Shown here: positions 38,201 through 52,382 of the stretch, piece after piece | How positions within the stretch are numbered: the first letter of the stretch is position 1 | Layout: each line of letters starts with the position of its first letter | Origin: Escherichia phage VEc25 | Sequence record: MW175414.1 | Reading direction: 5' to 3' (one strand) | DNA: 64,000 bases | The notes under the pieces: generated by a model | The model's database searches: none | What the model saw: the letters and a program-made list of their open reading frames with translations, nothing else | Told to the model about the DNA's origin: nothing | Made by a program: the position numbers and the translations under genes

Positions 38201-41200
38201 GCAGGGTTAGTACTATCAGGGTCAGCCATGAAATGTTCTACCGTAAGGTGTTTCATTACATGGGTATAAAGTTCCTGAGCACGAGCCATAGCATGTGGGT
38301 CAATTACAGCTTCAGTTGCTAATGCAGCAGTAACCATCTGGAATACAGATTGTTCCTGAGCAGTCATATTGAAGCCACGAGACTGAACATCACGAACTAG
38401 TCGAGTAGCACTCATTAATGCATTAGCCACATTGCCACGACGTTCTACTTCTGTAACTGGGTCAGTACGAAGGTAATCAGTTACCAGTTTATCGAAGGTC
38501 TGATTTAACTGAGACAGACGTTCATTGTTACCATATGCTTTGCTATGGAACAGTGTGCCATCTTTAGCTACTGCCTGAGTTGTAGGTTGGCTACGCATCA
38601 GAATTGCAGAATTAAACAGCAGATTAGAGAACATATCTTCTCCCAATGCAGGAGCTTGTTTACGTCCCCAAATCAATTTCTTAATGGCCTGATAAACATC
38701 TTTCACCATTTGAACCAGTGAAGATGTTCTCTTCTGTTTAGCAGCCAGAGCACGGTTAGCTAACCCCCAAGCCATAAACTCATTAAGAGCAGCAGCTTTA
38801 GAAATAGCTGGGTCAACAAAGCCATTACTCAAATGACCTTCAATAGTTGCAATAGCATCAGCATATGCTTCTCTCATTTCTGGAGAATCTTTGGAAATAT
38901 CCAGAGAACGGAACTGTTCCATCAGACCTTCAAGGTTCTCAATAGCCTGCTTAGATGTAGGGCTTACTTCATTACCCTGATAGAAGGAATAAACTTCCTC
39001 GAAGGTAGAAGCATGAACCAGTTCATGAATGAGGGTTTCCATAGATGGGCTAACCAGATAAATGGTCTTATCGTCGAAGTTAGTCCAGCCATAAATATTA
39101 CCTGCCTGAGCTTCTTCCATTTCCTGAGAAGTCAATTCAGTAACATTCTTCTGACGAGCATATTCTGCAACCTGAGTAGGTGTACCGTAGATAATCTTAT
39201 AGTCTTTAGCTGCCAGTGATTTCTGAATCTCTGCAAGAGTAGCTGCCTGAGTAGATGGCAGATTACTAATCTTAGCCAGGTTACGAATAGCAGTAGCAGA
39301 CAGGATACGAACACCGGATGCCTTATGCTCACGGCCTACCATACCAAAGTCTGGATTCACTGGTTCTTTTTCAGAAACAGTTTCTTCTTTGACTTCAGCC
39401 TTAGCCTTAGCGACTTTTTGTTTACGGGCTTCTAACTCTTCACGGAAAAGTTTATTCAGTTCATCAGCCTGTTGTTCAGGAGTCATATTGCTGAGGTCAA
39501 TCTTACCGTTGTTCTGATAAGGAGCACCTACAGCAGCCATCTGGTCAATGGACAGATTTACCTTATCCAGTACCTTATGGCGAATATCTACACCCAGTGC
39601 AATATTACGTAAGTTACGTTCAATCAGAGATGCAGCATTAGCAATATCATCTACAGTAGCATTCTCACGTTGGTCATATTCCAGGGCAGATTTACCAATT
39701 GCTTCCAATGCTTCAGGGGACAACTTGCTGAAATCTACATTCTTCATGAACTTAGTATATGATTCGTAAACATTCTTAATAGGGTTACCCTGCCAAGAAG
39801 TGTAAACAGCTTCATTAGCCTTACGACTAGCATCAGTAATGTCATTCAAACCAATGTTCATACCATCAAAGATTTTGAGGGTATTCTTTGGTGCACCTTT
39901 CATAGTGGAAAGAGTTTGCATCATCATGCCATCACCAGTACCAATAGTCATAAATGGAATACCTGCTACACCAGCCTGTGCTGGGGCATAGATACTCATT
40001 GGTACACGCATACGGTCATCAAGGTTAGTAGCTAATACCTGATTTGCTACTTCTGCATTTTCTGAGCCAGCAATGTAGAAAGTCTGAGAACCAGTCTCAA
40101 TCATAGGAGCTAAGTTATTCAGAGAAGCCTGAATATCATTCAGTTCTTTCTGAGTAAGGAAATCGCCTTTCTTCCATGTCGGGTCTTTAGCCTTCTCTGT
40201 CAGTTTCTCCTGTACTCGTTGTTTGAACATATCTTCCAGCACTACAGATTGAATCTGAGTAGCTTTCTGTAATTGTTCAGTGGAGTACACCAGACTTTCA
40301 CCTACAGTCTGAGTAATACCATTACGTAGTGGTTCTACAAAGAAGTGCAGCATATTTTCCTGAAGTGCCTTCAGTTGCTCACCCTTAATGGTATAGGTCT
40401 TAGGATTGATTTTCCCTTTGGCTCCTGCACCTGTGGATTGTAGTTCCAGTACACCTTTACGTTTAACAGGAACAGTAGAAGTCAGTGTTTCCATATCTTT
40501 CAGGAAACGAGCAAGAAGTTCTTCAGCATGTGCTTCTGAAGCAGCTTGCTTACCAAACATTGCCATAGCAGCAGAGATGTTTGGGTCTTTAGCACGAGCT
40601 TTCAGTACATCAGACATACGCTCATAGATGGCATCAGTAACAGAACTAACCAGCTTACCTGCAATACCACGAGCACCAGAACCATAGATAGTAATAGTCA
40701 GTGGGTTCTTAGCAATACCACGTTTAAGTTCTAAAGCACCATTCTCACCAAGATTAATATCCGGTAAGAACAAATCCATCAGAGAAAGAAGACTGTCTAT
40801 CTGGGACTGAATAGGCATATTAGAAGCGTAGTTACTACGTAACTTACCCAACGATTCCATCAAAGCATTAGTGGATGCTTGATATAAATCATTATTGTCA
40901 GCAGTAGAACGATGCTCATTCATGGTCTTATTTGGAGAACCAATGAATAAACCACCTTTGGCAATGTTACGAATCCAGTCAGGGGTAAACAGGCCACCTG
41001 TCATTAGCATCATGGCATTGATTGGACCATTAGTAACACCATCTGCTTCTACATACAGTGGGGTTACAAATGCAGATTTATCCTCTGCTACTAAGTAACG
41101 GGAATACTCCATAAGAGCCATCAATGCTACGAATGACTTCCTATCTCCTAATGCTGTATTCAGAACATCAACTGCATTTTCTGGTAAGGAACCAGTGGTA

Positions 41201-44200
41201 TTAAACTCAACCATCATATCAATGGCTGGTTTCAGATTACCTTCCAGTAATTTAGTTAACTCATCTGACATAACCTCACGAGTCATAGTATGGACTTTAA
41301 TGTCCAATGCCTGAGCCAGACCTAACTGGAATGCAGAGAAGTCTTCATTGTTCTGGTTCGATAAATCCAAAGTAGCTTTAGTAGGTAGGATAGCCTCACG
41401 AACCAGTTTGGCTGATTGAGGATTGTATTTACCTAACATCTGCATACGACCAACACGGGTCATATTGTATGCATAGTGAATAGGCACAGTAGAGATGTCT
41501 TCACTCTGTGCTCTTACCTGCTCAATGACGGAGAACAGTTGGTTGTAAGAGTCCTCTACTGAACGGTTCTTACCTTCCAGAGATTTAGCATGATTATCAT
41601 TAAGTAACTCTTTATTCAGAGTACCAGCACCCATCAGTTCGAGAATACGGTCTTTACCTAACGTCTCATAGAATTGAACCATTGGAGTGTGTACATAGAA
41701 CTCTGTAGCCTGTTCTGCTTTCAATGCAGCCTTCTGTTCTGGAGTATTACGAACAGCAGGATTACGAAGCTGAGTATTAGCTACAGGAGGAATGTCATTA
41801 CCAAAGAACATCTTCTCTGTAGGATTTACTAAAACAGCTTCTTCAATAGCAGTAGGGAAGCTATTAATTGGGTCGAAGGAATCCAGTTCAGTAATGGTGT
41901 ACAGACCAATCGTCTTCTTATTATCTGGGTCAATTTCTGACATATCCACGATGTTCTCTACAACATCAGTAGACTCTACAAATGCAGCCAGAATTTCAGC
42001 AGCCATTGCTGTAGGGATACCTTTGGTATAACCCAATGGAGCATTTGGATTACGAGATAATCCCCAGTAAGACTCAATTTTCTGAGCCAGGGAACTAACT
42101 GCTTCAGTGAGTGTCATACCAGTATCAAATTGCTCTACTAAACCCTCTGGCAGCAGAGCTTGGTCAATACCAGTAATAGCAGCAACATCTTTTGCATCTT
42201 TGATAGCAGTATTGCTGGTAGCAGTAAGTCTCCACTGAAGACCTGCTAATACAGCAGTCTGTAGCAATTGCTCGTTGTACTTAAAGGTATCCCCATCCTG
42301 TTCAACGATGTTAAGTAACTTACCACCTACCCAACGGTTGGCTTCTGTACCCTGAGCAAAACGTTTACCAACATCCTTAGTGTTAAGGAACTTAGCCAGA
42401 CGGGAACGAAGAATACCAGCAATACCTTCCCCATGTTCCATGAGTTCTTTATATCGCTTAATAACTTCCCCATTAAAAGCAGGATTAGCAACTTCTTTCT
42501 CAGTAAAGAGTTCATAACGAGCACGAGAAGACAGAGCTTGAGCTACCTCTTTTAGAGGTGCTTCTGAACCAACAGTACGGGATTTCTGTTCTTCCGGTAA
42601 GGTAAAGGACAATTTGAAATAGTTCTTAATACCCTCTGCTTTAGAATCAGCAGTACCTACTAGTGAAGGGTAAACAGCATCAATACCTTCTCTTAATTCT
42701 TCTGTAACTGTACTTTCTTTTGCAGAAGTTTCAGTTTCTTTAACAGATTCAGTAGGTTGCTTGATGTTGTCCTCATTAGTAAGGTTAACATCCCGTTTTT
42801 CAGACTGGCTCACAGGTTCTTTTATAGCCTGTGGTCTAGACTCTTTAGTAGTAGGTTCTGTTTTAACAGGTTCACTAACAGGAGTCTTAGTCTGTACAGT
42901 AGATGTAACTGGTTCCTGTTTTGTAACAGGAGTTTCTTTAACCTGATTCACGGAGTCAGCTTTCTGTTGAGAAGAAGCAACGTCTCGATTGCCTTGACGG
43001 AATGCCTTGACCACCTCAGCAGCAGGGGCGTTAAGACGTGAATCCAATGGAGTAACTTCTATATGACTGACCTTCAGTTCCGGGTAAGCCGAAGCGAGGG
43101 CATTAGCAATATCCGCTACCGTTTTCGCTTCAAGAGCAACTTGCTGGGCAAATTTAACCGACTTAGTGTCATAGGGATTGACCCCCAATCCGGTACGGCT
43201 ACGAACCCATTCTCTGTCGGCAGTAAGAGCTTGGTAGTGGACAGACTTATTCTTATCCGCATTCCCCGTAACAAGATGCTCATTCAACGCTCCAACCTTA
43301 TTCTGCATGTGCTGGGCGAACTGCATAAAGTCGTTCAGGTAAGCGGAGGCCAACTCGAAATTACCAGAGTTATACGCAGACCGAATCCTATTCGCATGTT
43401 GCAACGCAGAGTATTGTCCTTCCTGAGTTCTGCTCTCATCCGTTTTAATCTGTTTACTCACAATGTCTTGAGGACGTAATCCAAGACGGGCAGCTTCTGC
43501 ATCATATTCCCGTGCCCCCTTCAGGATTGCAGCAGCATTCTGAAGGGCAGCAATTTGGCGATTATTCAGTTTAATACGACCATCAGCAGCATGTTTAAGA
43601 ACAACATTTACAGATTCTGGATTGAGCTTTTCAGGAGCTACTTCAGCAGCTAATGCTACGTTCTGCATTTCCTGTGGACTGGATTCTTCAGTCACATCCA
43701 AAGAACCATTCTGGGCAGATTCATTAATCATTCGATTAATGACATTCAATGCACCAATTACTTTTGGTGTGTTCTGAATATTAGCTGTCAGATTTGTGTA
43801 ACGATTGAGTAACTCAATAGCCGGAGAATCTTTAGGAATGCTATCCAGTGCAGCAGGGTCACGGTTAATGAATTGCTCAAACTCTGAAACAGCATCATAC
43901 ATATAAGATGCAGCTTCCATCAGTGCTTGAGGATTAGATTCATCTAATGTGTTAACTAGGTCTGCTAACTTTTGAATAACCTGTACTTGGTCAGTAGAAC
44001 CAGCTACAGCATTACGAATATGCTCTGGTGCTTCCTGATAATTTTCAGGATTAAAACGAGTAGCATTCATTAAGTCAGAAACATACTGGTGTGCTGCAAC
44101 TTTCTGTTCTGGAGTAGCATCAGTTGCTTCAACAGCATCACGAATAGTAACTTCTGCTTCTGGTGCTTGAGCCATAGCTTCTTGTGCTGCCTGTGCAACA

Positions 44201-45708
44201 TAGTCATCAGCAACAGGAGATGCTTCTTCATTCTGCTTCATAACCCGTTCACCACGAGCTACCAAAGTGTTCTTAATAGGGGAAACAACCTTACCTGCTA
44301 CACTACCAGCAGCTTTAACACCAGCCATTGTGGTACGCAATACAGGAGCAGTTGCAGCACCTGCTAAACGAGCAGCACCAGCCGGAGCCTGTACAACACC
44401 AGCAGAACCAAAGCCATAAAGAGCACCTAAACCAGCTTGTGTACCGACACCTTTAAGCAGGTCTTGGTTCTTATCAATGTTTTGTTGCTGTGCAATATTC
44501 TGAGCCAGTTGGCCTGTAGCACCCTGAACACCTTCTTCCACTGTTTCACGGGCAAGGTTCATACCTACAGCACCTAAAGAACCAGCACGGAAAGGAGCCA
44601 TCTCAAAACGAGATACCAGAGGACCAGTTGCAGCAGCAATAGGTAATTGAATAGCAGCAGCAGTAAGACCAGTTTCAGATGCAGTCTGACGACGAGCCTG
44701 TTCTGGAGACATACCATCTTTAATATGTTGTTGATAAACAGGAGACTTCTCTAAGTCTTTAAGACTCATCTTCATAATTTCATCAGCAGTTTGTTGGTAT
44801 GCACCACCAGCTTCCATTGCACCAACACCAACTATACCTGGTGCAGCTCTGCCTACAGTAGAAGCAATACGAGCCAGGGACTGAGTACCAGTACCTGCAT
44901 CAATAGCACCAGCCAATGCAGCACTACGAAGAGTATTTACTGGAACAACTGCTTTACCCAGTAAAGATGCACCCCTTAATACAGGACCAGCACCTAATAG
45001 AGAACCTACCCCTTCCGCTAACCCATCAGAAATAATAGAGTCAGTTTGAGCAGCGTTCTCAATTGAACCTACAAAATCACGTCCAAATTTAGATAAGGAA
45101 GCTACTATGTCATTAGTGCCTTCTTTCTTATCTGTTTGATACTGACGTTCACTCTCTACTTCACTCATTAAGTTACGAGCAGCAAAGAGCTTACGTTTAT
45201 CTTGTAATGCTTGGCTTTGGGTAGCATGGACAGCATCATTAAACTTACTCAATTGTTGAGCAACAACAGCACCTGCATCATCGTTGAGTAAGCCTGCTCC
45301 AAGAGCACCAATGCCCCCAAGGGTATTAACAAAACCAAGACCAACACCAGTAGCAATATCCCCCAGTTCTTCCCCAGGAGTTCTTGTAGTAACTGAATCA
45401 TTAAATACCTGGTTCCCTGCATCAGCACGAGCGTTGATAAGTTGTAAGCCTTGCTCAACCCCATACTTATTCATGATTTGCATTGGAGTCAGATTCATGA
45501 AATCTGATTGCACTGTCCCTGGTTCAAATGCATTAGCCCCAACATTACCAGTACGGGCAGCTTGCATTTGATAAGCAGCATCAGGAGAAACAAGAGGAGT
45601 AGTGACACCTTGTTCAGCTTTCTTCTGGGCGGTTGCAGTAGAGACGTCAACTTGCTTTGCATTGGTTACGCTGTCTGCGAACCCAGCCAGTCTATCAAAT
45701 ACTGACAT
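35206..45708 (-). CDS. Virion-encapsidated RNA polymerase (N4 gp50-like), 3500 aa
   Basis: Giant ORF with an ATG at 45708; the central region carries T7-like motif A (EADGVTNGPINAMML), motif B (KRGIAKNPLTITIYGSG) and a motif C-like IFDGMN segment. Confidence 0.85.
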   Translation of the reverse strand: MSVFDRLAGFADSVTNAKQVDVSTATAQKKAEQGVTTPLVSPDAAYQMQAARTGNVGANAFEPGTVQSDFMNLTPMQIMNKYGVEQGLQLINARADAGNQVFNDSVTTRTPGEELGDIATGVGLGFVNTLGGIGALGAGLLNDDAGAVVAQQLSKFNDAVHATQSQALQDKRKLFAARNLMSEVESERQYQTDKKEGTNDIVASLSKFGRDFVGSIENAAQTDSIISDGLAEGVGSLLGAGPVLRGASLLGKAVVPVNTLRSAALAGAIDAGTGTQSLARIASTVGRAAPGIVGVGAMEAGGAYQQTADEIMKMSLKDLEKSPVYQQHIKDGMSPEQARRQTASETGLTAAAIQLPIAAATGPLVSRFEMAPFRAGSLGAVGMNLARETVEEGVQGATGQLAQNIAQQQNIDKNQDLLKGVGTQAGLGALYGFGSAGVVQAPAGAARLAGAATAPVLRTTMAGVKAAGSVAGKVVSPIKNTLVARGERVMKQNEEASPVADDYVAQAAQEAMAQAPEAEVTIRDAVEATDATPEQKVAAHQYVSDLMNATRFNPENYQEAPEHIRNAVAGSTDQVQVIQKLADLVNTLDESNPQALMEAASYMYDAVSEFEQFINRDPAALDSIPKDSPAIELLNRYTNLTANIQNTPKVIGALNVINRMINESAQNGSLDVTEESSPQEMQNVALAAEVAPEKLNPESVNVVLKHAADGRIKLNNRQIAALQNAAAILKGAREYDAEAARLGLRPQDIVSKQIKTDESRTQEGQYSALQHANRIRSAYNSGNFELASAYLNDFMQFAQHMQNKVGALNEHLVTGNADKNKSVHYQALTADREWVRSRTGLGVNPYDTKSVKFAQQVALEAKTVADIANALASAYPELKVSHIEVTPLDSRLNAPAAEVVKAFRQGNRDVASSQQKADSVNQVKETPVTKQEPVTSTVQTKTPVSEPVKTEPTTKESRPQAIKEPVSQSEKRDVNLTNEDNIKQPTESVKETETSAKESTVTEELREGIDAVYPSLVGTADSKAEGIKNYFKLSFTLPEEQKSRTVGSEAPLKEVAQALSSRARYELFTEKEVANPAFNGEVIKRYKELMEHGEGIAGILRSRLAKFLNTKDVGKRFAQGTEANRWVGGKLLNIVEQDGDTFKYNEQLLQTAVLAGLQWRLTATSNTAIKDAKDVAAITGIDQALLPEGLVEQFDTGMTLTEAVSSLAQKIESYWGLSRNPNAPLGYTKGIPTAMAAEILAAFVESTDVVENIVDMSEIDPDNKKTIGLYTITELDSFDPINSFPTAIEEAVLVNPTEKMFFGNDIPPVANTQLRNPAVRNTPEQKAALKAEQATEFYVHTPMVQFYETLGKDRILELMGAGTLNKELLNDNHAKSLEGKNRSVEDSYNQLFSVIEQVRAQSEDISTVPIHYAYNMTRVGRMQMLGKYNPQSAKLVREAILPTKATLDLSNQNNEDFSAFQLGLAQALDIKVHTMTREVMSDELTKLLEGNLKPAIDMMVEFNTTGSLPENAVDVLNTALGDRKSFVALMALMEYSRYLVAEDKSAFVTPLYVEADGVTNGPINAMMLMTGGLFTPDWIRNIAKGGLFIGSPNKTMNEHRSTADNNDLYQASTNALMESLGKLRSNYASNMPIQSQIDSLLSLMDLFLPDINLGENGALELKRGIAKNPLTITIYGSGARGIAGKLVSSVTDAIYERMSDVLKARAKDPNISAAMAMFGKQAASEAHAEELLARFLKDMETLTSTVPVKRKGVLELQSTGAGAKGKINPKTYTIKGEQLKALQENMLHFFVEPLRNGITQTVGESLVYSTEQLQKATQIQSVVLEDMFKQRVQEKLTEKAKDPTWKKGDFLTQKELNDIQASLNNLAPMIETGSQTFYIAGSENAEVANQVLATNLDDRMRVPMSIYAPAQAGVAGIPFMTIGTGDGMMMQTLSTMKGAPKNTLKIFDGMNIGLNDITDASRKANEAVYTSWQGNPIKNVYESYTKFMKNVDFSKLSPEALEAIGKSALEYDQRENATVDDIANAASLIERNLRNIALGVDIRHKVLDKVNLSIDQMAAVGAPYQNNGKIDLSNMTPEQQADELNKLFREELEARKQKVAKAKAEVKEETVSEKEPVNPDFGMVGREHKASGVRILSATAIRNLAKISNLPSTQAATLAEIQKSLAAKDYKIIYGTPTQVAEYARQKNVTELTSQEMEEAQAGNIYGWTNFDDKTIYLVSPSMETLIHELVHASTFEEVYSFYQGNEVSPTSKQAIENLEGLMEQFRSLDISKDSPEMREAYADAIATIEGHLSNGFVDPAISKAAALNEFMAWGLANRALAAKQKRTSSLVQMVKDVYQAIKKLIWGRKQAPALGEDMFSNLLFNSAILMRSQPTTQAVAKDGTLFHSKAYGNNERLSQLNQTFDKLVTDYLRTDPVTEVERRGNVANALMSATRLVRDVQSRGFNMTAQEQSVFQMVTAALATEAVIDPHAMARAQELYTHVMKHLTVEHFMADPDSTNPADRYYAQQKYDTISGANLVEVDAKGRTSLLPTFLGLAMVNEELRSIIKEMPVPKADKKLGNDVDTLLTNTGTQVMESLNRRMAGDQKATNVQDSIDALSETIMTAALKRESFYDAVATPTGNFIDRANQYVTDSIERLSETVIEKADKVIANPSNVAAKGVAHLAKLTAAIASEKQGEIVAQGVMTAMNQGKVWQPFHDLVNDIVGRTKTNANVYDLIKLVKSQISQDRQQFREHLPTVIAGKFSRKLTDTEWSAMHTGLGKTDLAVLRETMSMAEIRDLLSSPKKVKDEISTLEKEIQNQAGRNWNLVQKKSKQLAQYMITGEVGNNLLRNAHAISRLLGERITNGPVADVAAIDKLITLYSLELMNKSDRGLLSELAQSEVEGMEFSIAYMVGQRTEEMRKAKSDNRTLLNHFKGYIPVENQQGVNLIIADDKEFAKLNSQSFTRIGTYQGSTGFRTGSKGYYFSPVAARAPYSQGILQNVRNTAGGVDIGTGFTLGTMVAGRITDKPTVERITKALAKGERGREPLMPIYNSKGQVVAYEQSVDPNMLKHLNQDNHFAKMVGVWRGRQVEEAKAQRFNDILIEQLHAMYEKDIKDSSASKSQYVNLLGKIDDPVLADAINLMNIETRRKAEELFGKDELWVRRDMLNDALGYRAASIGDVWTGNSRWSPSTLDTVKKMFLGAFGNKAYHVVMNAENTIQNLVKDAKTVIVVKSVVVPAVNFLANIYQMIGRGVPVKDIAVNIPRKTSEINQYIKSRLRQIDAEAELRAAEGNPNLVRKLKTEIQSITDSHRRMSIWPLIEAGEFSSIADAGISRDDLLVAEGKIHEYMEKLANKLPEKVRNAGRYALIAKDTALFQGIQKTVEYSDFIAKAIIYDDLVKRKKKSSSEALGQVTEEFVNYDRLPGRFRGYMESMGLMWFYNFKIRSIKVAMSMIRNNPVHSLIATVVPAPAMFGNVGLPIQDNMLTMLAEGRLDYSLGFGQGLRAPTLNPWFNLTH

Positions 45709-45765
45709 AGTAGGTTTCCTATACAAACTTATATCTATTAGAAATCACACTATACCTAGTGTAAG

Positions 45766-45808: not shown

Positions 45809-47743
45809 TTAACGAGGAAATATATCAGGGATACCCAATCGACGTCCGGCATCTCTGCCTAAACTTCTCCGGTTTGCCTCGCTCTCTTCCTGTTTAATAT
45901 TTTGTAGGCTCTTAATATCCAAATTCTGAGGGTCAGCAGCTACAGCATTACGAGCACCATCAAGAAGACGTTTAGCAGTGTTAACTCGCTCTTGATAGCG
46001 AGGTAGTACACTTCTAAGGTTTTCCTGACCGGTCTGAATACGACGCTGTACTTCACGTAAATCAGCAAGTGCAGTATCTAACGTATTCTGTGCTGCATAG
46101 ATGTTTGATTGAATTTGTGCAGTAAGCTGATTACGAGCATTCTGTTCAATAGCAGTACCAGTAGTTGCAAGTTTTGCATTTGCTTCTACGGCTGCTTTAT
46201 CCAGTTGGTAATCACCGCCCAAATCAATAACATCAGTATCAAAGGCATTTCGAATACCACTAAACCATCCCTCTGGTTTACCAGTGATACTACGTTGAAT
46301 GATTGCTCCTGCCATAGCGGGAGAAATAGCATTCTGTTTTGCTACCTCATTGATTTGTCGAACCAGTGCACCTTGGTTAATGCCTTTCAGTTCATTGCTA
46401 TCAATAATACGTTTAGCCACCTGACCAGTCGTAGAAGGGTCAACAGTAGCAGCTTGGTATTCAGGCAGCAGAGTATTACCAATATTCTGCATATTACGAG
46501 TACCAACAGTATTACCAGCAACAGAAGTGAATGCTTGTTCTTGTAATGGATTAATAGAATTACCTGTTTCTGCTTGAGCAATGTAATCCTTCATTTCATC
46601 CCATGACAGGTTCTTATAAGCACCAGGAGTATCATCTGGTAAAGCAGCCCATGTACTCTTCAGATTGCCATTCTTACGGGCATTAAAAATAGCTTCACCC
46701 AGTTTGTCTTGGTTCTCCGGAGACATAGGAATGTTCTGCCAATCTTCACCAAATACCTTTGGAGCAAAGTCTTTAAGGGTATCTTGGTTAATCTGGTATG
46801 CACCAACAGGAGAAGCACCTAGTGTCTTCTTCATAGTGTCTTGATGCTGAACCACCTCACCTAAGTTCATCTGAGTAATAGGTACATCAGTTGGTGTGAA
46901 CTTATAGGTAGTGTCATATGCAGAACCATTCCGAGTACCCTGAGTACCAGGAGGAGATAGAGATGCAGAACCAGTTCCCGGGGTATATGCACCTGGATAT
47001 GCTCTATCTAACTGAGATAGTGCACGACTTACTGCTCCTGGTGACATTTGGTCGAACGTACCCTCTGCAAGCATACGAGCATCGTCAGCACTGTATGCAC
47101 CACGACGAATATTATTCAGTAACTGCATAGCAGCCTGAGTATCCGCATCGTTACGCATATCAACACCTAAGTCGAATAAGCTACGACGTTGACCAATACC
47201 AGCAGTACCCTGCCCTTGAAGGTTGTTCATGTAGTCCATAACAACACCAGCAGGAAGGGTTTTTAATACATCCCCATACTGAGCCTGTGCTGCCTGAACC
47301 TTTCTTGGGTCACCAGATTGATAAGCCAGAGCCAATTCCTGCAATGCAGGAGCAGCAGCATCAGTAGCTGCATTTACCTTCATGATTCTGTCATTACTGT
47401 ATCGAGTGAAATCCAGATTTTGTTGTTTAGATGCTTGGTCTAACAGATTGCCAGCACGATTATCTAAGTTCTCCATAGTACGAGAAGAAATTAGAGAAGG
47501 GTCATAGCCAGCAAATAATGCTCCAGAAGCTAAGGCATTACGATACTCATTAGGGTCTTGGTAACGCATGGCTTCAGCCATAATTGCATCACCAGCTTGC
47601 TGTCTTGCAGAGTTTCGAAAATCACCTAATGCATTACTCAATCCGGCAGTGGCATTACCCAGCATATTGGAGAAAGTACGAATACTATCCCCAACACCAG
47701 AGAAAGAAGGAGCATCAACATTACGCCAGGTTATCTGACTCAT
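45809..47743 (-). CDS. Virion structural protein (hypothetical)
   Basis: 644 aa from the ATG at 47743 (ggaggc RBS, ATGA overlap with the upstream gene); located in the late operon next to vRNAP. Confidence 0.5.
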   Translation of the reverse strand: MSQITWRNVDAPSFSGVGDSIRTFSNMLGNATAGLSNALGDFRNSARQQAGDAIMAEAMRYQDPNEYRNALASGALFAGYDPSLISSRTMENLDNRAGNLLDQASKQQNLDFTRYSNDRIMKVNAATDAAAPALQELALAYQSGDPRKVQAAQAQYGDVLKTLPAGVVMDYMNNLQGQGTAGIGQRRSLFDLGVDMRNDADTQAAMQLLNNIRRGAYSADDARMLAEGTFDQMSPGAVSRALSQLDRAYPGAYTPGTGSASLSPPGTQGTRNGSAYDTTYKFTPTDVPITQMNLGEVVQHQDTMKKTLGASPVGAYQINQDTLKDFAPKVFGEDWQNIPMSPENQDKLGEAIFNARKNGNLKSTWAALPDDTPGAYKNLSWDEMKDYIAQAETGNSINPLQEQAFTSVAGNTVGTRNMQNIGNTLLPEYQAATVDPSTTGQVAKRIIDSNELKGINQGALVRQINEVAKQNAISPAMAGAIIQRSITGKPEGWFSGIRNAFDTDVIDLGGDYQLDKAAVEANAKLATTGTAIEQNARNQLTAQIQSNIYAAQNTLDTALADLREVQRRIQTGQENLRSVLPRYQERVNTAKRLLDGARNAVAADPQNLDIKSLQNIKQEESEANRRSLGRDAGRRLGIPDIFPR

Positions 47744-48276
47744 ACGTATAGCCTCCATCCACGGTGAGATTCACAAGTACCATCTCGCAAACGGTACATT
47801 TGCTTACGACTTAACCCGTGCTCACGGCAGAATTTGTTTAAATTAATAATTTCCACAACATCACCATTGGGGTTTATGTACCAATGAGACTTACTATTAG
47901 CCTTAGCTACGTTGTCAGACACTGGGATTAGTTTACAAACTTTTGGACTATACTCAGGGGCAAGTCCATTATCTTTATCCAACTGGTAGTTATTGTTTTC
48001 TGGGTCAATGCCTAAAAGGGAGCAAGTATCATAGTACCACTGAGCGAAGTCTTGGTAGTTACCCCATTCTTTACTAACAACAACCCCTTTCGCACCGTAT
48101 TGGGAATACCCAGGATTAGCCGGATTGTAGCACCGCATAAACATCCCCCACCATCTTATGTATGCAGAGCATGTTTTACTGCCATCTTTTGTTTTAGTAG
48201 AAAACTTACAACCAGAGTTAACCATATGAGCAGGTTTCCACTGAACGTTAATATTTGAGTTTGGGTATTGTTTCAT
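47740..48276 (-). CDS. Hypothetical protein with W-x2-M-x2-RC-x-NP / YGxxG motif (homing-endonuclease-associated domain candidate)
   Basis: 178 aa from the ATG at 48276 (aggaga RBS); IRWWGMFMRCYNPANPGYSQYGAKGVVV resembles a motif seen in phage proteins often annotated as HNH/homing endonuclease. Confidence 0.4.
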   Translation of the reverse strand: MKQYPNSNINVQWKPAHMVNSGCKFSTKTKDGSKTCSAYIRWWGMFMRCYNPANPGYSQYGAKGVVVSKEWGNYQDFAQWYYDTCSLLGIDPENNNYQLDKDNGLAPEYSPKVCKLIPVSDNVAKANSKSHWYINPNGDVVEIINLNKFCREHGLSRKQMYRLRDGTCESHRGWRLYV

Positions 48277-48346
48277 AGTTGTTCTCCTAATATTGGCACA
48301 CACTAACTAAACAATACCCAAATCTCAATGAGCCATGTGATACCTC

Positions 48347-48799
48347 TTAACGAGTTAAGCGATTAGCTGCAATGTAAGCATCAGCCGTAGATTGGTCACG
48401 ATTTTCTGCAACAGCACGACTACGAGCACGGTCTTCCAGAGCAGTGTTATAGGACTTAATCTGGTTATTCAGATTAGTGTTAGTAACATCTTTAGCAAAA
48501 GAGAACTGATTCTTAGCTAACTTGTTAGCCTGTAATGCACCATAGATATTACCCAGTGCATTAAGACCACCTAACCCCAACTGGAAGGTAGGAATGTTCA
48601 GACCCAGTTGGTCAGTAAGCCCTTGAGTCTGTCCACCGGTATTCCCTGTAGCACCACCAGTAATGTTCTGAAGCCAGTCATTACTAAGGATGCCGGATTG
48701 CATAGGGTTATAGTTCATGGTTGGGGTATTAAAGGAACCATATCCATAGCCAAAATTGCTTTGTGCAGATGGGGTTCCAAAAAGGAAATTAGTATCCAT
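48347..48799 (-). CDS. Hypothetical virion protein (Gly/Asn/Thr-rich)
   Basis: ORF with ATG; low-complexity G/N/T/Q-rich. Confidence 0.45.
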   Translation of the reverse strand: MDTNFLFGTPSAQSNFGYGYGSFNTPTMNYNPMQSGILSNDWLQNITGGATGNTGGQTQGLTDQLGLNIPTFQLGLGGLNALGNIYGALQANKLAKNQFSFAKDVTNTNLNNQIKSYNTALEDRARSRAVAENRDQSTADAYIAANRLTR

Positions 48800-48812: not shown

Positions 48813-51470
48813 TTACGTATCTAAATCAAGCTGCAACGTTATATCTGCAAAGTTGGTAATCATGTTGTTAGACATATCAGCTATATCATGACCAGTCATA
48901 AGAGTACGGCTAAGGAATGAATCCAGTGGTTCAAATTGTTGGCCTACATTAGTTAGGTTCATTGGGTCAATGTAACCCATGCCCTCAGTGCCAAACATTT
49001 CCTTGTACTTTTCCTGAATGGTTTTCATCTGGTCACGGTACTCTGCCATAAGTTTCTCTGTCTTTTTGACAGTTTCCATAGCAGAAGCATTAATGTAATC
49101 ACTTATGCCATTTCCTACAGATGAAGTGAGTTTAATGATGTTGTCTGCTTTCATCATTTCACCCAGCATCGTAGACATGGATGAACCAGTGGATAAAGCT
49201 GTGCCGACATTCATGGCTACCATAGAGGCAATAGTAGCAACAATGATTCCAATTTTATCCCCAAGCAGACTAACAGAGACTGTTTGAATAATGGACATCA
49301 GAATCATAGCTGCAATGGCATTAGCCACAGCCCCAACGATAATAGCAGCTAACCCTGCAAAACCTAATGCAGCACCAATAGAAGCAGCAGTACCCATTAC
49401 CCCAGCACCAGCAGCAGGGGTAAAGAACACAGACACCACTACTGCAACAACAACCACTACTACTTTAAAGATGCCAGACTGATACCATTTCTTCTTAACT
49501 TTCTTATATGAGTTAAGAACCAGATAACAACATGCAGTAGATAACTGAGTACCATTTACCAAAGACATACTACGATAAATGTTGTTATGAAGCGGGATGA
49601 TAAATCCGGACTCTTCATCATCATTTAGTGCATCTACACCAGAAATGCTTACAGACTTATTCTTGTAAACATTATTGTTATGGTTCAGGCCATAGACAGA
49701 AATCTTCCTCCATGAATTATCCCCATCCTGCCAATACATTGTTATCTTATCTAGCCTGTAGATAGTAAACCCAACTTTGTCATTACCCTTTTCAGAGTAC
49801 ATAACGGCTTTCTGCATAAGGACTACAGTACCTTCATAAGCAAACTTGAGCTGCCCTTTCTTGGCTCCAGAGAATGCTTTACCTGAACCAACTGATTCTT
49901 CAATGAAGTTCCAACTAATAGTCATGTTGTAACGGTATCCACCGTTAGAACGAATATTAATGGATTTAGAAGGTATTGTTGGATATACGGGTCTTTTAGG
50001 AGGCTTCCCTATGGGAATATCCCTATTACCACTGCGAGATTCCCACCATTCCTGATAAGCATCAAAGTCCCTGTTAGCCTGAGCAAAGCCTTCTACCAAA
50101 GCATCCATAGTTGGGTAGTTTGGGTCAGCAGGCATTGATTGATTCACTAACTGGAAGAATCTGTATATGTACTCTTTAGCTGTATTTTCAGGACTATTAA
50201 GAGAACAACCAAATACAGCATAGATATACTGAATATCACCAATATCTTTGTTCTTCTTCAGGTCATCCATAATGTCAGAAATCTTACCCCCTGTAGCCTT
50301 CTTAAAGGCTTTCTTACAAAGAGTATATGTAGAGCCAGAAATCCAGTTCTTATCACTACGGATAGGGATGAATGAATAGAATCTGTTATTGGTCGTCTTA
50401 TTAATAAACAGAGCATCAAGGATGGCATTACCACTGTTCTGTTTATAAATAAACAATTGAGGCATACCACCAGCAGACATAGTAGTAACTACATCTGTAT
50501 TCTGATAAGACCATGTATAACCTAAAGTATCTGTAGTTACTGTAGTAGTTCTGGTTTCAGTAACCCCACCACCTAAATCAATAACTTCAGTGTTTGTAGT
50601 GGAACCAGTAGATACAGTGCCAGTCTGTACCTGGGTCATTGTAGTCTTACGAATAATGATTAAGCCTACTTCACTTGGTTCACGAAATTCTTTCTCGTAA
50701 ACATCTGAGAAGTTAGTCCAACTAACCTGTTCTTCTTCAGTATTGGTACTTTCCTCATCAGGTCTGCCATCAGAGAATACACTCTTAATATGAGTAACTG
50801 TCTTCAGGGTAGCTGACTTAGGAGTATGGTTCTGAGATACCTGAGTCCATTCAGAAGTAGAAGGTAAGTCATCAGCAGATGATACAGGTACAACAGGGTG
50901 AACCACTGGGTCTGCAACACTAGTAGGCTGTATGTAGTAATAGTTCACATACAGATACATTGCATCCTGACTGAAATTCTCTGGGTAAAAGGATAACTCA
51001 CTACCATCAGTAGCAGTGAGTACAATCCTGTCATCATCCATGATATCTATTTCAAACTCTTCAGTAATACGGTCTGGATAATTCTCATAGAGGAATTTAT
51101 CAGCCCATTCCTCAAAATCACCAAATCCAATCCTACTGCTCTGAACCTGTACCTCATAACCTGCTTTTTGAGGAACTTGCCATTTAACTACTTCAGGGTC
51201 TATCTGAGACAGTATTGACAAGTTCCCGTAAGCAATACCAATTGAAGGGTCATAGTTAGTTGCAGCCCAACCAGGGAATCTACGTAAACGAATACCAGGT
51301 CCATTTAAATAAGAGTCAGTGATGGTATCACCCATACTAAAGTCAGATTTACTGACGATGTTACCAATCACCGTAGTCTTTAAATAATTTGGACGTTTAT
51401 GTATATCCCCTGCCAAATTGTAGACAGAGGATGCTACGTAGATTTTAGTCTTACTGCTAAACAGTCCCAT
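48813..51470 (-). CDS. Large virion protein with extended hydrophobic Gly/Ala-rich membrane-like region
   Basis: 885-aa ORF; residues around 640-750 form an approximately 100-aa hydrophobic stretch (VVVVVVAVVVSVFFTPAAGAGVMGTAASIGAALGFAGLAAIIVGAVANAIAAMILMSII...). Confidence 0.5.
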   Translation of the reverse strand: MGLFSSKTKIYVASSVYNLAGDIHKRPNYLKTTVIGNIVSKSDFSMGDTITDSYLNGPGIRLRRFPGWAATNYDPSIGIAYGNLSILSQIDPEVVKWQVPQKAGYEVQVQSSRIGFGDFEEWADKFLYENYPDRITEEFEIDIMDDDRIVLTATDGSELSFYPENFSQDAMYLYVNYYYIQPTSVADPVVHPVVPVSSADDLPSTSEWTQVSQNHTPKSATLKTVTHIKSVFSDGRPDEESTNTEEEQVSWTNFSDVYEKEFREPSEVGLIIIRKTTMTQVQTGTVSTGSTTNTEVIDLGGGVTETRTTTVTTDTLGYTWSYQNTDVVTTMSAGGMPQLFIYKQNSGNAILDALFINKTTNNRFYSFIPIRSDKNWISGSTYTLCKKAFKKATGGKISDIMDDLKKNKDIGDIQYIYAVFGCSLNSPENTAKEYIYRFFQLVNQSMPADPNYPTMDALVEGFAQANRDFDAYQEWWESRSGNRDIPIGKPPKRPVYPTIPSKSINIRSNGGYRYNMTISWNFIEESVGSGKAFSGAKKGQLKFAYEGTVVLMQKAVMYSEKGNDKVGFTIYRLDKITMYWQDGDNSWRKISVYGLNHNNNVYKNKSVSISGVDALNDDEESGFIIPLHNNIYRSMSLVNGTQLSTACCYLVLNSYKKVKKKWYQSGIFKVVVVVVAVVVSVFFTPAAGAGVMGTAASIGAALGFAGLAAIIVGAVANAIAAMILMSIIQTVSVSLLGDKIGIIVATIASMVAMNVGTALSTGSSMSTMLGEMMKADNIIKLTSSVGNGISDYINASAMETVKKTEKLMAEYRDQMKTIQEKYKEMFGTEGMGYIDPMNLTNVGQQFEPLDSFLSRTLMTGHDIADMSNNMITNFADITLQLDLDT

Positions 51471-51473
51471 GTA

Positions 51474-52382
<909 letters not shown>

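Follow-up and report, generated by a model that had tools for sequence, protein, structure and literature searches.

The window analysed here, a 64,000-nucleotide stretch of Escherichia phage VEc25 (MW175414.1), an Enquatrovirus, carries in its late gene cluster an ORF for a protein with an exceptionally long hydrophobic segment in its C-terminal part, which raises the question of whether this segment is destined for a host membrane. A first-pass annotation had suggested that it is, reading the protein as an ejection protein that inserts into the membrane and could provide the channel for passage of the virion RNA polymerase (vRNAP) and DNA across the host envelope. The features discussed below are listed in Table 1.

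Table 1 Features of the tail-plug gene and its neighbors in the window.
Feature	Coordinates	Strand	Description	Basis
gp53 tail-plug gene	48813..51470	(-)	885 aa + stop codon, ATG start	ORF list
gp53 residues 29-56	51303..51386	(-)	N-terminal helices completing the knot	PMC13434306; AF2 helices 29-40, 46-55
gp53 residues 209-332	50475..50846	(-)	long beta-sheet 'feather' protrusion	AF2 strands, high pLDDT; PMC13434306
gp53 residues 666-760	49191..49475	(-)	hydrophobic stretch (95 residues)	hydropathy, conserved in homologues
gp53 residues 670-716	49323..49463	(-)	C-terminal half of 'hydrophobic knot'	PMC13434306; sequence identity to 9YFT
gp53 residues 725-885	48816..49298	(-)	rest of hydrophobic stretch and conserved helical C-terminus, tail lumen	PMC13434306, AF2
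gp54 tail-tube gene	51474..52373	(-)	299 aa, directly upstream of gp53	ORF list, phrog_2050, PMC13434306
gp52	48347..48799	(-)	150 aa, lumenal ejection protein, putative outer-membrane channel; directly downstream of gp53	PMC13434306, synteny
gp51 ejection protein	45809..47758	(-)	649-aa ORF (periplasmic tunnel)	phrog_6126
gp50 virion RNA polymerase	35206..45726	(-)	about 3500 aa	ORF list, N4 gene order

The ORF product is, as judged from its sequence, the Schitoviridae tail plug, gp53 of phage N4. The ORF shows 98.2% nucleotide identity to N4 gp53, and the same gene is present in some fifteen Enquatrovirus genomes at 98–99% DNA identity. N4 gp53 also consists of 885 residues, from which the VEc25 protein differs by about 11 strain-level substitutions, none of them within residues 613–816, and the hydrophobic stretch is identical. 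In a sequence search of the PDB, chain FA of 9YFT ('Gp53') was matched over its full length (1980 bits), with residues 613–816 identical on sequence comparison, and chain M of 9ZE4 ('N4 gp53-like protein' of Pseudomonas phage DEV) was also matched, with a best-aligned region (623–881) that includes the hydrophobic stretch. The protein is assigned to phrog_2220 in PHROGs (E = 0, residues 1–884 covered), a family annotated as of unknown function, and a Pfam scan of gp53 and its neighbors matched no family. The order of genes in the window (portal, gp58, gp57, major capsid protein, gp55, gp54, gp53, gp52, gp51, and the vRNAP gene gp50) is the same as in N4, and the tube–plug–gp52 order is kept in a relative of 36% identity, represented by a 5-kb contig that is too short to span the whole cassette. 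Full-length homology to N4 gp53, the position of the gene, the core fold, and the C-terminal hydrophobic module all place the ORF among the Schitoviridae tail plugs.

The segment of about 100 residues that the first-pass annotation had described as Gly/Ala/Val-rich, and had rightly picked out as unusual, is borne out by the ORF itself, by hydropathy, and by comparison with 5000 shuffles. Between residues ~661 and ~760, the Kyte–Doolittle mean over 19 residues stays above 1.6 with hardly an interruption, residues 670–737 form a 68-residue run without Asp, Glu, Lys, or Arg, and residues 661–765 are composed of 19% Ala, 17% Val, 11% Gly, 11% Ile, and 10% Ser. The best mean hydropathy over 95 residues is 1.81, as compared with 0.46 ± 0.14 in the 5000 shuffles (maximum 1.18, none reaching 1.81), and the longest uncharged run (68 residues) compares with a mean of 25.6 and a maximum of 57 in shuffles of the same protein; since the shuffles never match either value, the hydrophobic stretch is real and far beyond chance. 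Its likeness to transmembrane (TM) helices was gauged by Kyte–Doolittle hydropathy, by Eisenberg moments, and by the biological hydrophobicity scale of Hessa (2005), which was summed over 19-mers without position weighting and thus gives approximate ΔG values. Four TM-grade segments were found at residues 666–684 (approximate ΔG of 0.3 kcal/mol), 691–709 (2.7), 710–728 (−0.8, the most TM-like 19-mer of gp53), and 740–758 (2.3). By the same rough measure, the best 19-mers of the neighbors gp54, gp52, gp51, and gp50 score 7.8, 7.9, 10.6, and 4.0 kcal/mol, respectively. The gp53 segments are thus the sole TM-grade ones in the late gene cluster and by far its most hydrophobic. Their Eisenberg mean hydrophobicities are 0.65–0.81 and their hydrophobic moments only 0.03–0.26, the low moments indicating that all four are uniformly greasy and non-amphipathic. 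Small-xxx-small motifs are mildly enriched in the stretch (19 versus 14.3 ± 2.4 in shuffles), to which we give no weight. Taken by itself, the sequence appears TM-like, and the impression that a membrane is involved was a reasonable one.

The fate of this stretch in the virion can be read from the N4 protein. Bellis et al. (Nat Commun 2026) have identified N4 gp53 as the tail plug, one copy of which sits on the 12-mer tube of gp54, the plug density having been assigned by cryo-EM and its identity backed by LC-MS, so that the suggestion of a virion protein is supported by two methods in a 98%-identical homologue (PMC13434306). The DEV homologue gp74 is likewise a single-copy plug (mBio 2026, PMC12892993), and the latter paper credits Zheng et al. 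2025 (Structure 33:1250) with having recognized gp53 independently as the plug. Furthermore, another gp53 homologue, gp74 of LIT1, was detected by virion mass spectrometry in 2010, at a time when the N4 protein had not yet been identified in particles, which fits one copy per virion (PMC3715699). In the N4 structure, the tube is corked by a 'hydrophobic knot' in which six short helices from residues 29–56 and 670–716 come together (PMC13434306), showing the segment to be α-helical and not buried β-structure, as is also suggested by low-confidence helices in our AlphaFold2 model. The globular core and the β-feather, which make up most of the protein, lie outside the tube at the distal tail tip; the cryo-EM model spans residues 9–724 only, the remaining ~160 residues being 'lost in the tail lumen'; and the plug is gripped by domains D9–D10 of one gp65 receptor-binding sheath subunit, giving a 12:6:1 mismatch (PMC13434306). 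We assume that, at an amino-acid identity of ~99%, the 12-mer tube of VEc25 is likewise sealed at its distal tip by a single gp53 molecule.

On these grounds, we consider it most likely, with a probability of about 0.85, that gp53 is the Schitoviridae tail plug and that its greasy segment serves as a self-packing stopper and lumenal tether, not as a channel. In this arrangement, residues 670–716 pack with the N-terminal helices 29–56 as a compact knot closing the tube opening, as shown for N4, and residues 717–760 with the conserved helical C-terminus (to residue 885) would extend up the tube lumen, as has been partly shown and is partly extrapolated here, probably beside the stored copies of gp52. 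According to the published model, the binding of gp65 to NfrA/NGR would release the hold on the plug; gp53 would then swing aside while staying tethered, and the lumen would open, allowing gp52, gp51, gp50, and the DNA to leave in turn and a trans-envelope channel to be built. The best-supported mechanism is that of a receptor-gated stopper, as published. In agreement with this, the plug density was equally strong in full and DNA-emptied N4 particles, for which the authors propose lateral displacement of the plug followed by its re-seating via the knot, although they caution that the particles were emptied in vitro and not into cells, so that a plug staying in place there need not mean the same during infection (PMC13434306).

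These data bear directly on the earlier proposal that gp53 inserts into the membrane and itself provides the conduit for vRNAP and DNA. Such a role would accord with the TM-like sequence and with the location of the gene next to the ejection cassette gp52–gp51–gp50, and membership of gp53 in the apparatus that delivers the genome and vRNAP can indeed be upheld. Its designation as a channel-forming ejection protein, however, fails on the copy number, the location, the retention on emptied particles, and the channel activity of the neighbors. A protein present once per virion (12:6:1 mismatch), with its bulk outside the tube and at the distal tip, and with its density staying on emptied particles, is a poor candidate for a pore, and four helices of one polypeptide would be too few to enclose a lumen of ~35 Å. 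The proteins with measured channel activity in lipid bilayers are gp52 and gp51, not gp53, and the ejectosome roles have been assigned by experiment to the same two proteins: in the published model, gp52 forms the outer-membrane complex and gp51 the periplasmic tunnel, with the C-terminal part of gp51 and the N-terminal domain of gp50 forming the inner-membrane complex (PMC13434306; gp51 and gp52 trade places in its abstract, and the body text, with which the figures agree, is followed here). The PDB matches of gp53 are 9YFT and 9ZE4_M only, neither of which is an ejectosome protein. A gp53 channel is thus highly improbable, and the function proposed for it belongs to its neighbors gp52, gp51, and gp50.

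The same conclusion is reached by comparison with the ejectosomes of other podoviruses. T7 gp14/gp15/gp16, DEV gp73/gp72/gp71, and N4 gp52/gp51/gp50 serve the same delivery pathway, the N4-type genes adjoining gp53. However, podovirus ejectosome proteins occur in several copies, reside in the capsid or the lumen until they are lost from emptied particles, and form channels, whereas gp53 occurs once, lies mostly outside the tube, and stays on particles emptied in vitro; sequence and fold searches revealed no relation of gp53 to the ejectosome subunits (T7 gp14–16, DEV gp71–73, and N4 gp50–52). The gp26 proteins of P22 and Sf6 are trimeric coiled-coil needles that are not known to contain a long hydrophobic stretch. 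They do the same job as gp53, sealing the tail channel after packaging (PMC11445570), and no similarity between them and gp53 was detected in fold searches.

The evolutionary conservation of gp53 also points to the knot. In an alignment of 44 homologues with 36–56% identity, the most conserved regions are residues 1–60, 617–665, and 666–760 (mean top-residue frequency of 0.66–0.73 versus 0.54 overall), that is, the parts forming or adjoining the published knot, and the hydrophobic stretch is kept in all 44. Within it, the poly-Val/Ile segment 666–684 is conserved in hydrophobicity alone, whereas residues 705–735 show a 100-degree (α-helical) periodicity of conservation with an invariant face of Ala709, Gly713, Asn717, and Ala720/Ala721, which points to specific helix packing beyond mere greasiness. 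Glu847, Phe852, Arg855, Thr856, and Gly860 are invariant in the C-terminus. The feature is widespread: all of the 236 full-length homologues contain two to four TM-grade segments, the first starting 208–231 residues from the C-terminus, and a search with residues 620–885 against 1.84 billion cluster representatives (50% identity) gave 1457 matches at E ≤ 0.001, including 552 at E ≤ 1e-30. Among the 150 matches listed, the near-full-length proteins carry the hydrophobic module C-terminally and fall into two length classes, of about 740 aa (DEV-type) and about 890 aa (N4-type).

The knot accounts for half of the hydrophobic stretch; segments 710–728 and 740–758 are largely beyond the cryo-EM model and could therefore have another role. 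We speculate that these helices in particular, together with the lumenal C-terminus, may enter the outer membrane after release of the plug, where they would hold the tail tip in place or serve as a nucleus for inserting the gp52 channel, much like the L-loops of phi29 gp9 but from a single copy of the protein. Four consecutive, non-amphipathic TM-grade segments, unmatched in the late gene cluster, would suit such dual use, as would the label 'TMhelix containing protein' borne by homologues in UniProt/BFVD; moreover, withdrawal of the plug should necessarily expose about 95 greasy residues at the outer-membrane surface. A precedent exists in phi29, in which the L-loops are hydrophobic helices bundled in the distal tail tube, blocking passage as the gp53 knot does, and later form a hydrophobic helix barrel penetrating the membrane (PMC6542822). 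The analogy is incomplete, however, because gp9 is present in six copies whose loops exit to form the ~32-Å barrel (PMC6542822), whereas gp53 is present in one copy with the knot re-seated after DNA release, and because the host of phi29, unlike that of the gp53 phage, is Gram-positive. Searches of the PDB by sequence and by fold disclosed no relation of gp53 to a gp9-type hexameric knob. Re-seating of the plug on particles emptied in vitro, which the authors credit to the knot (PMC13434306), also speaks against a departure of the helices into the membrane, and the invariant face of Ala709, Gly713, and Asn717 fits fixed protein–protein packing no less than the packing of helices in a membrane. 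We hence regard the dual use as rather unlikely. Its most explicit version, in which residues about 717–760 and the lumenal C-terminus would insert into the outer membrane on receptor-triggered unplugging and act as a single-copy pilot or anchor seeding the gp52 channel, is slightly less likely still, and a secondary role of gp53 as membrane anchor or pilot is, in general terms, proposed here with a corresponding reserve. Entry of the greasy residues into the outer membrane, if it occurs, would add an initial step to the current model of N4 ejection and would make the plug the earliest part of the N4 ejectosome to act on a membrane.

The hydrophobic segments might alternatively act during virion morphogenesis, if a chaperone or the inner membrane of the host were to hold newly made gp53, with assembly of the tail tip starting there and the knot representing no more than a storage form. 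A helix with a ΔG of about 0.3 kcal/mol or below on the Hessa scale is usually integrated by Sec/YidC, and two 19-mers of gp53 have approximate values at or below about 0.3 kcal/mol; in addition, gp53 has no known chaperone. Yet the segment comes late in the 885-residue chain and can pack on N-terminal helices that have already folded, and the strict conservation of residues is accounted for by the knot and the tube interface, so that an assembly role of this kind appears improbable.

The stopper reading was also compared with a fold model of gp53 that we built using AlphaFold2 and the 44-sequence alignment. The core was predicted with confidence, as were the strands of the β-feather (residues 209–332), whereas residues 660–885 were modeled as helices at a pLDDT of 30–50, and the model in this region is thus no independent confirmation of the knot. 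A Foldseek search of the PDB showed that the core fold is shared with the solved DEV plug (9ZE4_M), and the sole matches in a fold search of BFVD were podovirus proteins, of which two are labelled 'TMhelix containing protein'. DEV gp74 differs from gp53 in two respects, consisting of 740 residues without the β-feather, which is absent from the about 740-aa DEV-type homologues, and being held by the gp56–gp55–gp54 receptor-binding fibre, whereas N4 gp53 is held by the gp65 sheath subunit (PMC13434306, PMC12892993). Two candidate relatives of the feather were rejected as generic resemblances among long β-sheets, namely, the aerolysin-type β-pore-forming toxins (Foldseek probability ≤0.57, TM ≤0.15) and the maturation proteins of ssRNA phages (a weak Foldseek match, probability ≤0.41).

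Where gp53 is located, that it is present in one copy, and how its hydrophobic segment folds as a knot corking the tube were already known from work published in 2025–2026 on a phage about 98% identical; the present analysis adds the conservation, the generality across homologues, the fold model, and the synteny, and reveals that the TM-grade segments of the plug are conserved over more than a thousand sequence clusters. Finally, gp52 and gp51 are separated in VEc25 by an additional HNH-type gene that is missing from N4, and the 644-aa annotation of N4 gp51 corresponds to a start at the second Met of the 649-aa ORF in the window.

Bilayer channel activity has been measured for gp52 and gp51 (PMC13434306), in neither of which a strongly hydrophobic 19-mer was found, the best segments reaching 7.9 and 10.6 kcal/mol, respectively, in a crude Hessa sum (an approximate ΔG per 19-mer), whereas the tail plug gp53 contains four strongly hydrophobic segments by the same measure. 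In VEc25, therefore, hydrophobicity alone does not pick out the proteins for which channel activity has been measured. As to the roles of these two proteins, PMC13434306 assigns the outer-membrane complex to gp51 and the periplasmic tunnel to gp52 in its abstract, but the reverse in its results, Fig. 6, and Fig. 8; one sentence of the same paper also matches DEV gp73/gp72 to gp51/gp52 in the wrong order.

Between gp52 and gp51 lies a 187-aa ORF matching HNH-endonuclease PHROGs (phrog_2081, E 1e-38). At its end, this ORF overlaps with the beginning of the gp51 ORF. In N4 and vB_Eco_SPSP, by contrast, the two genes are separated only by a 10-nt gap. Among the 50,697 phage records searched, an HNH ORF occupies this position elsewhere only in Escherichia phage PGN829.1, where the counterpart (88% identity) is annotated as an HNH homing endonuclease. 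The ORF looks like an inserted homing-endonuclease gene within the ejection cassette.

Mechanical ORF calling gives gp50 a length of 3506 aa (from a TTG start) and gp51 a length of 649 aa. Compared with the published N4 proteins of 3500 and 644 aa, the called starts thus lie 6 and 5 codons too far upstream, respectively, and internal Met codons are probably the true starts of both. The sign of the GC skew changes from positive upstream to negative downstream at ~35000–36000, coinciding with the point at which plus-strand genes give way to the minus-strand late/virion block, the last gene of which encodes the vRNAP.

The extreme N-terminus of gp53, MGLFSSK(T/K)K, is near-invariant among homologues (M1, G2, F4, and K9), and DEV gp74 has it too; the 9YFT model lacks residues 1–8. 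The beta-feather, a long beta-sheet protrusion of gp53, gave weak Foldseek matches to beta-pore-forming toxins of the aerolysin family (Mpp75Aa1.1, epsilon toxin, and aerolysin) and also to ssRNA-phage maturation proteins. Because the probabilities are ≤0.57 and the TM-scores ≤0.15, these likenesses probably reflect a generic resemblance among long beta-sheets.

Window coordinates of the features discussed
Feature	Position	Strand	Basis
gp53 residues 1–9	51444-51470	-	
gp53 beta-feather, residues 209–332	50475-50846	-	
gp52 and gp51	45809-48799	-	
HNH-type ORF, 187 aa	47740-48303	-	PHROG matches
gp51 upstream codons	47744-47758	-	
gp50 upstream codons	45709-45726	-
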